This document shows positions 10,623 through 15,267 of a stretch of 35,852 bases of DNA, piece after piece. The notes under the pieces are model-generated. The model was not told where the DNA came from and did not search any database. It saw only the letters and a list, made by a program, of their open reading frames with translations. The position numbers and the translations under genes were made by a program. The stretch spans positions 1 to 35,852 of the IMG/VR virus record IMGVR_UViG_2778261246_000001; one strand, written 5' to 3'. The stretch is from a virus (lineage: Duplodnaviria; Heunggongvirae; Uroviricota; Caudoviricetes). How positions within the stretch are numbered: position 1 is the stretch's first letter; each line of letters opens with the position of its first letter.

Positions 10623-10768
10623 CGAGATTAAAGTGCATTAGTTCAGATGCAAATTGACATTTTGTGGCACAGGGTAGAGCTAGCGTGGTTGTCCGCTTTG
10701 TGCCAACAGCGGACATTATAGATGGTATATGTAGAAAGTGAACATGCGTAGATTGTATGATTTAGCCG

Positions 10769-11578
10769 TCACTTAATTATTGGATAACTCACACAAGTAT
10801 GACCGTTGCTTATCGCATACATTTGGTTTCCCTTAAGATTTACAAATGGAAATGTCGTATACTCATAATTTATAGAGGTCATATTAAATGTAAGGAATTT
10901 ATCTTCAAGTTCTAATTTTGTAGAGTGGGCAGGGTATGTTCCTTCATTTTTCATTGTGATAATAAAACCGATAGGAAAAAAATGTAAAGCACAAATAAAT
11001 GCCACATGTCCTTCGTTCATAAATGCTACACTTTGAGCGGATATGTGCATTCTGTGTGGGTAAAACCAGTAGTAAATATCATGAGTTTCCTCAAAACTTG
11101 AATTTTTACCCAAAACATAATCCTTTAAAGGTGTATAGAAGGGGCTATCTACGGGTTCTTTTTTACAATCTTCAACTGAAGTTGCTGATAGCACGTGCCC
11201 AATCATAGCCTTAGTGAAAGATATGCTATCAAAAGGTATTCTAATGAATGGATATACATTCATACCATTCATATATCGACTTAACTGTTCTTTAAAGGAC
11301 TTTGTTACATTTTCAATTGCAACATCGAGCCCACCTAATACCTTATTGTTACAGTGGCTGCAAATGGTTCTGAAATAAGAGCCATTTTTAGCATTTAATG
11401 GTTTAACTGGTTCCTGAATACCAAAAAATTCGCTAACTGTTTTCTGCAAAACAGGGCCTAAGGTTATGGCGCACTTTGGAGGAACATGATCTTTTGTGAG
11501 CAAGCCATATTTCCCACAAATATTGCAATAACCTTCAGTAATGCCATTGTGCTTCCATCGTTCACTAATTTTCGTCAT
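10769..11578 (-). CDS. HNH-nuclease-like zinc-finger protein with uncharacterised C-terminal domain, 269 aa
   Basis: Intact ORF with SD GAGGGA 7 nt upstream; N-terminal C18-x2-C21...D30-H31-VPPK...C73-x2-C76-N77 is consistent with a bba-Me/HNH fold; sits alone in an AT-rich island. Confidence 0.6.
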   Translation of the reverse strand: MTKISERWKHNGITEGYCNICGKYGLLTKDHVPPKCAITLGPVLQKTVSEFFGIQEPVKPLNAKNGSYFRTICSHCNNKVLGGLDVAIENVTKSFKEQLSRYMNGMNVYPFIRIPFDSISFTKAMIGHVLSATSVEDCKKEPVDSPFYTPLKDYVLGKNSSFEETHDIYYWFYPHRMHISAQSVAFMNEGHVAFICALHFFPIGFIITMKNEGTYPAHSTKLELEDKFLTFNMTSINYEYTTFPFVNLKGNQMYAISNGHTCVSYPIIK

Positions 11579-11762
11579 TTTTATTCCCTCAGTAGCATAA
11601 GCTATCTATACGTTTTTTAATCCTATCAAAGATACAACTTAACGTCAGGAAAATGATAGTGTTTATCTAAGTAATACAATTAACTTCAACGCGTGACAGT
11701 CTGCTTTTCGCTCAAAGCGGACTAGAAGGTTAGCTTGCGTCGGACTTGGCGTATTTAAAGAA

Positions 11763-11987
11763 GTGCTGGTGGTGACTGGTTGTTGTGTTCCATTTCTACA
11801 GAATAAAATCACAGAAACTATACCCAATAGTTGTATTGAATCACTGACGAGACAGCCTCATATTTATCAGGACTGGTGTGCGTCTAATACAGGGGGTTGT
11901 CGTGCTGGTTCTCAAATGTGCGCTGGCTATTGCGGCTGTAATGGCAATTTATTGTCTTGCTGTTGTTCTTATGGAGCGGCTTTCTGA
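11763..11987 (+). CDS. Questionable small Cys-rich ORF (74 aa, GTG start)
   Basis: 11 Cys in 74 aa (..CASNTGGCRAGSQMCAGYCGCNGNLLSCCCSYGAAF); no ATG start and no convincing SD; may be a TG-rich chance frame. Confidence 0.15.
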   Translation: MLVVTGCCVPFLQNKITETIPNSCIESLTRQPHIYQDWCASNTGGCRAGSQMCAGYCGCNGNLLSCCCSYGAAF

Positions 11988-12138
11988 TTGATTACATACT
12001 GGCTAGAAAAAAGGTGTTACCTTGGTTTATCTTTGTCCGGCAAGGTGCGCTCATTAATCTTAAGTAAATTTATTGCTCAAGTATTCAGATTACTTCTTAT
12101 GGTTGAAGTCTCCTGTCAATGTAGAACCAATATATTTA

Positions 12139-12175
12139 CAAAAATGAGACCCGTCGGGGATAGCCCTGCCGGGTC
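12139..12175 (-). terminator. Putative rho-independent terminator downstream of the YeaR-like gene
   Basis: Arms AGACCCG / CGGGTCT (12146-12152, 12169-12175) with a T-run on the minus strand (complement of 12139-12145). Confidence 0.4.
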
Positions 12176-12205
12176 TGACTGTTAAAGCATTTTTAATATG
12201 ATCAT

Positions 12206-12544
12206 CTATTTTTTGGTGCTATAGACTTTTTCGCCCGAGAAGTCTGGAGCGACCCAAAAGTTAATATTAAACTGAGCATCATCGCTTAGTTCAACACGGT
12301 GCCAGTATTGTGGTGGGCTTGTTGCAAAAGCGCCAGCATTAATGACTACTTTTATCTCCGGTTCAGTAGCATTCTCATCAGTAAAACCATAATATGTTAC
12401 AGTGCCTTCCATTACGCACAACTGCCCAAAAACACCTGCTGCTGTATTATGATGTGTTAATAACGCTGAAGGTACGTTCTCTTTTGTGAAGAACGGAGTT
12501 GAGCGTTTGATTACCCAATCTTTAGGAATTCTCTTGTGTGTCAT
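12206..12544 (-). CDS. YeaR/DUF1971-family protein, about 112 aa
   Basis: Aligns by eye with recalled E. coli YeaR (RSTPFxxK...GxVxYxGxxDExxxEPxxxVxIxAGxFAxxPPxxWHxxExxxDxxFNIxFxVAP); strong SD GAGGAGG 5 nt before the internal ATG. Confidence 0.6.
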   Translation of the reverse strand: MTHKRIPKDWVIKRSTPFFTKENVPSALLTHHNTAAGVFGQLCVMEGTVTYYGFTDENATEPEIKVVINAGAFATSPPQYWHRVELSDDAQFNINFWVAPDFSGEKVYSTKK

Positions 12545-13357
12545 AACCACCTCCTCAAAAACATGCATTATAAATGCGTGTTTTTGAGGGTTATGTCAAG
12601 CTGTTATGAAACACATAATTGATATGTTGATTAGAGGAGAAGATATAATAAATATGGTTGTTTTTCGTATAACTATTTGTTTTACTTTTAGTTTATGCAT
12701 TCTGTGTGTTAGGAATAAGTTATTAAAGTTTAATAAAAAAATCTCGATGTAGTCCACATAGATTATTGTTACTGAACCTTATTGTGTGTATTAGTTGTGT
12801 TCTGAAATTTCAGCTTAATTATTTATGATGTATTTTTTAACGATAAATATTTTCCCAGGATACCTTTACTGTGTATATAAATAAATTATATACACATAAA
12901 TAATGTAAAGGCGTCCTTTTAGATATATCTTATCAAATGTTAATGACTTGAGTGGGAAATATGATTCCAGCAACTTATCATGTGGCTACTTTATAAAAAT
13001 AATGCCCATATAAAACAACAAGCGAAAAGGATTACGGATAAAAAAGGAGCGAGATGTGCGAACTTGTTATTTTCCATGTTTAACCACCTTAAATAATTGA
13101 TGATGACGGGATGATTGCATCTGTAATGCTTTTATTGAAATGTTATGATAAAAAAGAACTTTTGCATAACATTAAAATGTAATTTATCTAATCGTTTTTA
13201 ATAATAAATGTCGTATTTCTATCCTTGTACCAGCTATTTGATATGTAGTGTTTGTTCATGCTATGTGGGGCTTTACACCATAGCCAGTTTATTTATACTT
13301 TATTCGTCAGCCTGAACAACTGGCATCTGCTGCGCTGCGCCATCGAGAGATTGAGAA

Positions 13358-13957
13358 ATGGCGCATATACAACTGGTCAAACAAACCTCTTCTGGTTTAC
13401 TTCTCCCGGCGACGCCGGAGAGTTGCGATTTTTTGCATCAAATCAAAATAGGTGAGTGGATACACGCAGACTTTAAGCGTGTGCGTAACTACGCATTCCA
13501 CAAGCGTTTTTTCAAACTCCTGCAACTGGGATTCGATTACTGGACTCCGGTCGGTGGGGCGATCACGCCTCGCGAACGAAAACTGGTATCGGGCTTCGTT
13601 GATTACCTGTGCGAATCAGTAGGTCGGGAACACACTCCAGCCCTGAGTGATGCCGCAGAGCAATACCTTAATACCGTTGCGACATGCAGAACCCGGGATA
13701 CGGCATTGCTAAAGTCGTTTGACGCTTTCCGCGAGTGGGTAACCATTCAGGCAGGATTTTACACCGAGTATATTTATCCTGATGGTAGTCGTGGGCGCAG
13801 GGCAAAATCTATCGCATTTGCGAACATGGACGAAACCGAGTTTCAGCAGGTTTATAAATCTGTACTGAATGTGCTGTGGAACTGGATCCTGTTCCGTAAA
13901 TTTTCCTCTCCGGAGGAAGTCGAAAATGTGGCCGCACAGTTACTGGAGTTTGCGTAA
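13358..13957 (+). CDS. Nin-region phage protein (DUF1367-like), 199 aa
   Basis: Intact ORF with an ATG start; position between the accessory island and the YbcO-like gene; family assignment from memory only. Confidence 0.5.
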   Translation: MAHIQLVKQTSSGLLLPATPESCDFLHQIKIGEWIHADFKRVRNYAFHKRFFKLLQLGFDYWTPVGGAITPRERKLVSGFVDYLCESVGREHTPALSDAAEQYLNTVATCRTRDTALLKSFDAFREWVTIQAGFYTEYIYPDGSRGRRAKSIAFANMDETEFQQVYKSVLNVLWNWILFRKFSSPEEVENVAAQLLEFA

Positions 13958-15113: not shown

Positions 15114-15189
<76 letters not shown>

Positions 15190-15192
15190 TAT

Positions 15193-15267
<75 letters not shown>

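Follow-up and report, generated by a model that had tools for sequence, protein, structure and literature searches.

The window analysed here is the whole 35,852-nucleotide stretch of the viral record IMGVR_UViG_2778261246_000001 (Caudoviricetes), and its subject is an intergenic gap at 12569-13357, together with the regulatory sites and short open reading frames (ORFs) that the gap contains. To its left lies a cargo gene on the minus strand that encodes a DUF1971/YeaR-like protein, and to its right, on the plus strand, lie the DUF1367, DUF1364 and DUF1133 genes, the last of which is annotated elsewhere as the antiterminator Q. An initial annotation had described the gap, with these flanks, as AT-rich, free of ORFs of more than 60 amino acids (aa) and unusually long for a phage genome, and this description holds. 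Indeed, the 789 bp have a guanine-plus-cytosine (GC) content of 0.299 compared with 0.460 for the window, the ORF list holds no ORF of more than 60 aa wholly within the gap, and the sole such ORF touching it is a 67-aa ORF with a TTG start (13252-13455) that runs out of frame into the DUF1367 gene. RefSeq places the start of the DUF1971 gene at 12544, 24 nt downstream of the start of the longest ORF, which the initial annotation had used. The annotated gap therefore measures 813 bp, and no other gap in the prophage is as long.

Over 901 bases around the gap, the sequence matches a prophage of Escherichia coli PEC422, integrated next to ttcA, with 100% identity. The genes of this prophage run in the order intR, xisR, ralR, recT, recE, kilR, sieB, racR, ydaS, ydaT, ydaV, DUF1627 and DUF977, with ydaU also present (ydaSTUV), and continue with a gene for a 269-aa hypothetical protein (minus strand), the DUF1971/TehB-family gene (minus strand), the gap, DUF1367, DUF1364, DUF1133, tRNA-Thr, tRNA-Gly and the lysis genes. 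Because of this PEC422-identical gene order at ttcA, the window is a Rac-like lambdoid prophage, of which close relatives recovered as phages also exist, for example vB_EcoS-666R9. The GC content falls from ~0.50 to 0.25-0.40 between ~10650 and 13350, and therefore the whole cargo region, and not the gap alone, is AT-rich.

A mosaic junction of cargo and backbone

The distribution of the gap among other genomes divides it into parts. The whole gap is carried by 460 of 5426 complete E. coli genomes, and its left part (12600-12990) by only 465, namely those with the DUF1971 cargo, in the form of two haplotypes that are ~5% apart and differ by a 57-bp insertion or deletion (indel). The right block (12985-13265) occurs in 1176 complete E. 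coli genomes (~22%) at 72-100% identity and is never annotated. By alignment the mosaic boundary lies at ~12990, and conservation that is independent of the cargo begins at the stop codon of a 28-codon ORF on the minus strand. Of 98 loci with the right block, 61 have HokD on the left, 20 have DUF1971, 6 have IteS and 11 have another gene or a contig end; on the right, 67 have DUF1367 and 27 have a 92-aa gene of the CFT073 type, which is followed by DUF968, RusA and Q. In every case 266-281 bp separate the small ORF from the right-hand gene. As the regions upstream of DUF1367 in 40 other species are unrelated to the block, the latter is not generally linked to DUF1367. The hokD-rem region of the K-12 prophage Qin shows no similarity to the block, and K-12 lacks the block, so that published ribosome profiling of K-12 is uninformative on the 28-codon ORF.

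The gap is a mosaic junction between cargo and backbone, made of several parts and not of one element, and as such is ordinary in kind for a lambdoid prophage. Since the constant block adjoins many different left neighbours, the slot between the DUF977 gene and the block (~10650-12990) is a cargo hotspot. The reading that we favour, with a probability of about 0.6, is that three pieces with different histories meet in this junction of the Rac-like prophage. The first 50-60 bp of the gap would hold the control elements of the divergent yeaR-like cargo gene, arranged around an operator of the NsrR type. The stretch from ~12610 to 12989 would be an AT-rich spacer that travels with this cargo, in which the 32-codon ORF flagged by the initial annotation arose by chance. 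The rest, from 12990 to 13357, would be a backbone module used next to many different cargos, whose minus strand would code for a membrane peptide of 28 residues and one helix, provided with a ribosome-binding site of its own, and whose plus strand would carry a weak terminator-like hairpin and, after it, an invariant promoter-like motif with the leader of the Q-like operon (Table 1). Neither an NsrR-type operator on a prophage yeaR paralogue nor the 28-codon candidate is categorically new, and both belong to known kinds.

Table 1. Features of the gap and its left edge (positions in the window)
Feature	Position	Strand	Remarks
DUF1971/YeaR-like cargo gene	12206..12544	-	Pfam DUF1971, 2.6e-26; RefSeq coding sequence in PEC422
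Nested inverted repeats I1, I4 and I9 around the operator	12535..12615	-	RNA fold -34 kcal/mol, z = -6.1
NsrR-type 11-1-11 inverted-repeat operator, AACATGCATTA-T-AAATGCGTGTT	12560..12582		Core of a 17-nt inverted repeat, 12553-12589
Candidate promoter of the yeaR-like gene	12567..12599	-	Predicted; TATAAT (reverse complement of 12567-12572) in the operator centre, TTGACA (reverse complement of 12594-12599) 21 nt upstream
Promoter-like TTGATA-19-TATAAT	12619..12649	+	Divergent from the candidate yeaR-like promoter; speculative
Flagged 32-codon ORF	12654..12752	+	Encodes MVVFRITICFTFSLCILCVRNKLLKFNKKISM; not supported as a gene
Long AT-rich hairpin (I2, I5) followed by UUUU	12857..12917	+	Just right of the 57-bp deletion; candidate terminator or insulator
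Promoter-like TTATCA-17-AATAAT	12975..13003	+	Antisense to the 3' end of the 28-codon ORF; same alignment column in 63/68 haplotypes
Unannotated 28-codon ORF plus stop codon, MENNKFAHLAPFLSVILFACCFIWALFL	12991..13077	-	ATG, TAA and 28 codons constant
Shine-Dalgarno (SD) sequence AAGGTGG	13084..13090	-	6 nt upstream of the ATG of the 28-codon ORF; DNA ~30% GC
Weak terminator-like hairpin CGTTT-loop-AAATG plus T-rich run	13193..13210	+	Within 13160-13215
TTTACA-16-TATACT, candidate promoter of the DUF1367-DUF1364-Q-like operon	13272..13299	+	10/12 consensus; 68/68 haplotypes identical
Conserved leader	13300-13357	+	Precedes DUF1367

An NsrR-type operator at the left edge

The operator was scored with a palindromic NsrR weight matrix derived from 18 published CFT073 sites, whose training range is 12.4-30.5 bits and whose best genomic example is ytfE, AAGATGCATTT-A-AAATGCATCTT (PMC5320621, Table 4). 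At 19.5 bits it is the top match to this matrix in the 35.8-kb window, and of 1000 shuffled versions of the AT-rich island only 0.2% score as high. The operator is retained in three sister haplotypes, where it scores 25-26 bits, and the NsrR site of K-12 yeaR itself reaches 21.8 bits with the same matrix. It is centred on TATAAT and lies 16 nt upstream of the start codon of the YeaR homologue, whose product is 41% identical to K-12 YeaR; in addition, GAGGAGGTGG stands 5 nt before the ATG at 12544. PMC5320621 regards yeaR as a known NsrR target and lists an NsrR site for it, and in CFT073 the gene ranks among those most strongly induced by nitrate.

The left edge of the gap thus appears to provide the cargo gene with an NsrR-type operator to which NsrR is predicted to bind. 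With the sigma-70 -10 box placed within the operator, host NsrR would repress the yeaR-like gene, and nitric oxide or nitrosative stress would release this repression, as at chromosomal yeaR. The arrangement resembles the chromosomal yeaR-yoaG promoter in that a gene of the DUF1971 family has an 11-1-11 NsrR-type repeat directly upstream, in that an A/T-rich -10-like hexamer (TATAAT here, TAAAAT in K-12) occupies the operator centre, and in that the prophage operator, in its variants, scores equal to or above that of yeaR. At K-12 yeaR, NsrR is said, in work by Lin, Bledsoe and Stewart from 2007, to overlap the -10 element. The two differ in that the prophage gene is a cargo gene without a yoaG partner, its operator lies 16 nt from the start codon compared with ~50 nt in K-12, its -35 box stands at 21 nt, and its site is a predicted operator. 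Owing to this non-canonical 21-nt spacer, the TTGACA/TATAAT pair is not reported by the promoter scan, although each hexamer is perfect. The nested inverted repeats around the operator would pair the Shine-Dalgarno (SD) sequence and the AUG of the yeaR-like gene, and would do so only in transcripts that start further upstream. If this wiring is correct, a prophage cargo gene is seemingly connected to the host nitric-oxide sensor and would be a clean case of a moron adopting a host regulon.

Two further observations concern the same gene and the same matrix. A GC-rich hairpin, AGACCCG...CGGGTCT (12148-12177, minus strand), followed by CATTTTTGT on the minus strand, was noticed by eye, is absent from the scan, and is probably the terminator of the yeaR-like gene. 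The second- and third-best NsrR matches of the window also fall within the gap, neither being significant alone: one of 12.0 bits at 13174-13196, in the most invariant part of the backbone block, and one of 10.3 bits at 12640-12662, over the TATAAT at 12644-12649 and the ATG of the 32-codon ORF.

The backbone block and its conserved 28-codon ORF

Copies of the 28-codon ORF were collected from complete genomes, from an IMG/VR scan and from a metagenome scan, diverged copies being read by six-frame translation. The metagenome scan, which contributed 61 of the 159 copies, used a pattern that constrained codons 1-18 only. The ORF is intact in 159/159 copies, which represent 16 DNA haplotypes and 11 peptide variants, all of 28 aa, and codons 19-28 together with the stop codon are intact in all 61 metagenome copies. 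The encoded peptide consists of a polar MENNK head and a 23-residue hydrophobic segment (grand average of hydropathy 1.41; best 19-residue window 2.46) and follows the pattern MENNK-x5-PFLSVILF-x5-WALFL. Its SD sequence reads AAGGTGA in most copies of clade B and AAAGTGA in the CFT073 type. One further locus outside the 159 copies (L054, NZ_CM125652.1) has a degraded junction, in which a deletion of ~170 bp has taken most of the ORF.

Substitution events in the ORF were counted on a minimum spanning tree of the haplotypes, and both of the P values given here are corrected for transitions and transversions. The 36 events (25 transitions and 11 transversions) include none that disrupts start, frame or stop (0/36, P = 0.032) and 17 that are synonymous against 11.0 expected (P = 0.023), and the changes at codon positions 1, 2 and 3 number 5, 11 and 20, respectively. 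The replacements (A/V, C/F, V/A/I and, at a single position, L/F/C/S/G) preserve hydrophobicity and are conservative in terms of a membrane helix. Stop codons break the plus-strand 38-aa ORF (12980-13096), which overlaps the 28-codon ORF, in the L044 type and also in the clade with 75% identity, and an 8-bp indel shifts the frame of the plus-strand 35-aa ORF at 13208-13315. The 28-codon ORF therefore unites a preserved frame, a synonymous excess and a ribosome-binding site, and from these features of the sequence we consider its translation somewhat better than an even bet.

The most invariant stretches of the block lie outside this ORF, at 13160-13215, which is the most invariant non-coding part, and at 13268-13357. 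The former holds the weak terminator-like hairpin, whose version in clade B (CGCTT/AAGCG plus TTGTTTTTAT) is called a plus-strand terminator by the scan; where the clades differ in this stem (C-G to U-A, G-C to G-U), pairing survives on the plus strand only. The TTTACA-16-TATACT motif is kept whether DUF1367 or the CFT073-type 92-aa gene follows, and the leader from 13309 on is common even to the Sakai prophage Sp10. In its layout the block resembles a terminator with the promoter and leader of the Q-like operon behind it. In lambda, tR2 occupies the corresponding position. The likeness to the lambda tR2-tR4 region and to lambdoid moron boundaries extends to the location between replication genes and nin-like/Q genes, to the terminator-like hairpins just upstream of the first nin-like gene, and to a variable, AT-rich and oppositely oriented cargo with its own promoter and terminator. 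The differences are that no N-like antiterminator is annotated in the window's prophage and that an invariant promoter-like motif follows the hairpins, and the likeness does not extend to sequence similarity. In one locus (L048, NZ_AP027869.1) the junction is degraded by an IS1 located exactly at the left edge of the TTTACA-16-TATACT motif.

Several points weigh against the reading of the gap as a three-piece junction with a coding backbone module. To begin with, every promoter, terminator and translation claim in it is a prediction. The antisense frame that shares wobble positions with the 28-codon ORF has 16 synonymous changes compared with 17, and therefore the strand cannot be chosen from the substitution pattern alone; what favours the minus frame is the integrity of the ORF and its SD sequence, and only these. 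The coding statistics are moderate (P ~0.02-0.03 each), and the family is shallow, with at most ~25% DNA divergence and members in E. coli-type prophages only, which limits the comparative power. The scan of 68 haplotypes found no good minus-strand promoter common to both clades, and in the window's clade an 8-bp insertion breaks up the TTGCTG-16-TATTAT that clade B has on that strand. A search with two joined peptide variants among 5.8 billion protein clusters yielded 4 aberrant relatives only and no distant homologues, and three of the four are rare frameshifted alleles, the other being a read-through allele. With regard to the regulatory sites, the non-canonical spacer leaves the strength of the yeaR-like promoter uncertain, and TTTACA-16-TATACT may be silenced or may be no promoter, since a lysogen would be endangered by an unrepressed promoter ahead of a Q-like gene.

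Among the alternatives, the one that survives best, although we regard it as possible and not as likely, is that no protein is coded in the gap. The 28-codon ORF would then be a by-product either of DNA or RNA constraints on a module for entry into the Q operon (a terminator, a promoter, an operator or H-NS nucleation on AT-rich DNA) or of a conserved linker favouring the exchange of modules between lambdoid phages, and our estimate covers both forms jointly. The similar synonymous excess of the antisense frame and the lack of a minus-strand promoter common to both clades speak for it, as do the position of the most invariant stretches outside the ORF, the fixed distance of the module to whichever operon follows and the plus-strand terminator-like hairpins ahead of the promoter motif. 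It accounts less well for an ORF whose start, stop and length are kept through 36 events and 159 copies, for a G-rich SD sequence at ideal spacing in DNA of ~30% GC, for replacements that preserve hydrophobicity, for conservation that begins exactly at the stop codon of the ORF, and for the fact that the other ORFs of the block are broken in other clades.

If the 28-codon ORF is translated, as the three-piece reading holds, its product would be comparable to the small membrane proteins of E. coli supported by ribosome profiling, such as those of the YoaJ, YoaK and YohP class, which likewise have fewer than 30 aa and a single helix and whose genes of less than 90 nt are likewise missed by annotation pipelines; those proteins have experimental support, and the present candidate is phage-borne and known from its sequence alone. 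Zero families of Pfam-A, NCBIfam or PADLOC match the 28-aa ORF, although short profiles may miss very distant relatives, and an exact look-up of the 28-aa peptides in the 5.8-billion-cluster collection of 15 billion proteins found them absent, an 87-nt gene being presumably too short for standard gene callers. Literature searches on the peptide motif and on Rac small proteins yielded nothing specific. The gene candidate, invisible to standard annotation, is carried by about one in five (~22%) complete E. coli genomes, including that of uropathogenic CFT073, and its translation would add a widespread phage-borne membrane peptide to the small proteome of E. coli.

As to function, our guess is that the peptide could be a membrane effector expressed in the lysogen, possibly a type I-like toxin. 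That it is an unrecognised effector of Rac-like and Qin-like prophages, acting as a new type I toxin, as a modulator of host membrane proteins or as a phage excluder, is a tentative proposal to which we give a low probability. A slightly lower one still attaches to the specific version in which the ORF is the toxin of a new type I pair and the antitoxin is a plus-strand antisense RNA. This RNA would start either at 12975-13003, with full overlap in the style of Ibs/Sib, or at TTTCCA-16-TATGAT, with overlap of the 5' untranslated region (UTR) in the style of Hok/Sok or Ldr/Rdl; whichever start is taken, the low estimate is the same single one. The second site, TTTCCA-16-TATGAT (or CATAAT), lies on the plus strand over the start of the 28-codon ORF in 60/68 haplotypes, not including the window's clade, so that between the two positions promoter-like sites occur in 60-63/68 haplotypes. 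However, promoter motifs arise by chance in very AT-rich DNA, and their numbers in the real sequence match those in shuffles. In clade B, the first site is followed ~115 nt downstream by a small hairpin with a T-run (AACCCTGATAGGGTT-GTTATTT), which in one haplotype shows a paired change to AATCCT/AGGATT, yet the window's clade lacks this hairpin. Neither the predicted antisense RNAs (z +1.4 to -1.7) nor the 5' UTR exceeds shuffled sequences in stability, and RNAalifold on the block gives only -10.9 kcal/mol with little covariation.

The comparison with known enterobacterial type I toxins (Ibs/Sib, ShoB/OhsC, TisB/IstR-1, DinQ/AgrB, ZorO/OrzO, Hok/Sok and Ldr/Rdl) is similarly divided. The 28-aa ORF belongs to the small hydrophobic ORFs of <60 aa that are typical of type I systems, falls in the 19-50 aa class with a short polar head and one transmembrane helix, and in size and hydrophobicity is like the toxins of the Ibs, ShoB, TisB or DinQ class. 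It is located in an accessory region of the prophage, with promoter-like sites on the opposite strand, and hokD adjoins the locus in most cases (61/98), in a slot where addiction modules gather. It differs from these toxins in being a single-copy locus without the tandem repeats typical of ibs and ldr, in having no sequence match to a known toxin family, and in lacking a demonstrable structured antisense RNA. In particular, the HOK_GEF profile (PF01848), for a family characterised by ~50 aa, a conserved Cys and an LCE[IV]R region, matches neither the 28-aa ORF nor the flagged 32/48-aa ORF at E <= 1, and it does find its positive controls (HokD, 1.2e-23; a truncated 41-aa Hok, 3.2e-16). Neither peptide matches the curated profiles of Ldr, Ibs, ShoB, TisB, DinQ and other small toxins.

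The cargo-linked spacer and the cargo hotspot

The spacer between the operator and the block (~12610-12989) is found only with the yeaR-like cargo gene and has no conserved ORF. Compared with the sister haplotypes L043-L045, the window has a 57-bp deletion at 12853/12854, and the CCCAGG direct repeat that flanks it suggests slippage. The long AT-rich hairpin to the right of the deletion folds with -23.8 kcal/mol on the plus strand (z = -6.5; 0/200 shuffles as stable) and -26.1 on the minus strand, the UUUU run being present on the plus strand only, and this hairpin with its U-run probably insulates the cargo from backbone transcription. Its inner palindrome is kept in L043 through paired changes, with the register shifted.

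The initial annotation had also considered a small RNA locus, and in the spacer this could take the form of a plus-strand non-coding RNA (ncRNA) of ~265 nt, running from the promoter-like site at 12619-12649 to the hairpin and U-run at 12857-12921 and maybe co-regulated with the yeaR-like gene. The site has a near-consensus -35 box and a perfect -10 box (TAGAAT in the sister haplotypes), the hairpin before the UUUU is very stable, and the weak NsrR-like site of 10.3 bits covers the -10 box. We consider such an ncRNA improbable, as the 19-nt promoter spacer is suboptimal, the 10.3-bit score is within shuffle noise, a 57-bp indel is tolerated inside the putative RNA, and no Rfam match is better than E = 0.05, all of them being far under gathering scores; in addition, a divergence of only ~5% makes conservation uninformative. 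Between 11500 and 13500, nothing in Rfam reaches the gathering score, the best match having E = 0.057 and 26 bits compared with a gathering score of 100, and relaxing the threshold to E <= 10 adds nothing relevant.

The flagged ORF itself is present as the initial annotation described it, with GAGGAG (12635-12640) 13 nt before its ATG. T-rich DNA encodes hydrophobic residues by default, and in shuffled versions of the gap the longest ATG ORF has a median of 40 codons, reaching 32 codons or more in 80% of them and 48 or more in 31%. Across 9 haplotypes from genomes and viral contigs the frame has 27, 32 or 35 aa: 32 in the window type, 27 in the L044 type, where K28 has become a stop, and 35 in the L043 type, where the stop has become Tyr. 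The differences amount to 12 nonsynonymous against 3 synonymous (I8T, T11A, T11I, S13G, C18R, K22N, F26L, K28Q, K29E and M32I as replacements, plus two stop changes). With this 12:3 ratio and variable frame length, the ORF looks like unconstrained DNA, and the reading frame is not conserved in related prophages, an outcome that the initial annotation had itself named as counting against it. Zero families of Pfam-A, NCBIfam or PADLOC match its 32/48-aa forms, and its 48-aa extension occurs in the protein collection only as automatic hypothetical-protein calls from E. coli. The flagged ORF is a chance ORF in T-rich DNA: hydrophobic yet not conserved, and of no importance in itself.

That it should be a membrane toxin of the Hok/Ldr/Ibs type under an antisense RNA, as had been proposed from its hydrophobic then basic sequence and the upstream GAGGAG, is very unlikely in spite of a minus-strand promoter-like site (12790-12762) that could yield the antisense RNA and of automatic pipelines that call its 43-48-aa extended form a hypothetical protein, since its length is at chance level, it is truncated or extended in sisters with substitutions as for neutral DNA, it has no match to a toxin family, whereas the HokD control hits PF01848 at 1e-23, its SD spacing of 13 nt is poor, and the best plus-strand promoter-like site (12619-12649) would start RNA at or after its ATG and leave the SD sequence outside the transcript. 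The origin of the spacer as the decayed remnant of a larger gene was likewise rejected: the 57 additional bp of the sister haplotypes do not give them a longer ORF, and phage and plasmid collections showed no similarity beyond E. coli prophages. The general suspicion that the gap holds a small functional element proved sound; it had been attached to the wrong ORF, the conserved one being the 28-codon ORF on the opposite strand.

Further observations concern the hotspot. Its cargos in equivalent slots (L002, L043-L053) include iteA/iteS, hokD, QueH, KilA-N, a YobI P-loop nucleoside triphosphatase (NTPase), an Sll1717-type ATPase, an LA2681 HEPN protein, and a cytosine methyltransferase (Dcm) with an ATP-dependent nuclease. 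Between the DUF977 gene and the constant 370-bp module, genes for defence and addiction (iteAS, hok, HEPN, P-loop NTPases, nuclease/methylase) are thus exchanged, which makes the module a useful landmark for mining prophage cargo; literature searches on IteA/IteS hotspots yielded nothing specific. In sister prophages, hok or hokD adjoins DUF1971 or the block, in the neighbouring cargo slot. A hok remnant in the window was considered and rejected, 11579-12210 being without similarity to the hok regions of the sisters.

Two cargo ORFs lie further to the left. The 269-aa hypothetical protein (10769-11578, minus strand) has a Cys-rich N-terminus and similarity to HNH_5 and zinc fingers at sub-threshold level only; it matches nothing in PADLOC or NCBIfam and may represent an uncharacterised gene for defence or an accessory function. 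A second small hydrophobic ORF (11905-11994, plus strand) encodes 29 aa, VLVLKCALAIAAVMAIYCLAVVLMERLSD, from a GTG start after AGGGGG. It is unannotated and without a Pfam match, and a counterpart ending in LM[ED]RLSD-stop is kept ~320 nt upstream of hok/hokD in L045, L051 and L052, the window itself having no hok gene.

To the right of the gap, the only matches at gathering score in the window with Rfam 15 are two tRNA genes at 15114-15264 (plus strand), which are Thr and Gly in the identical RefSeq prophage. The pair lies directly downstream of the Q-like gene and occupies the position of the late promoter region.

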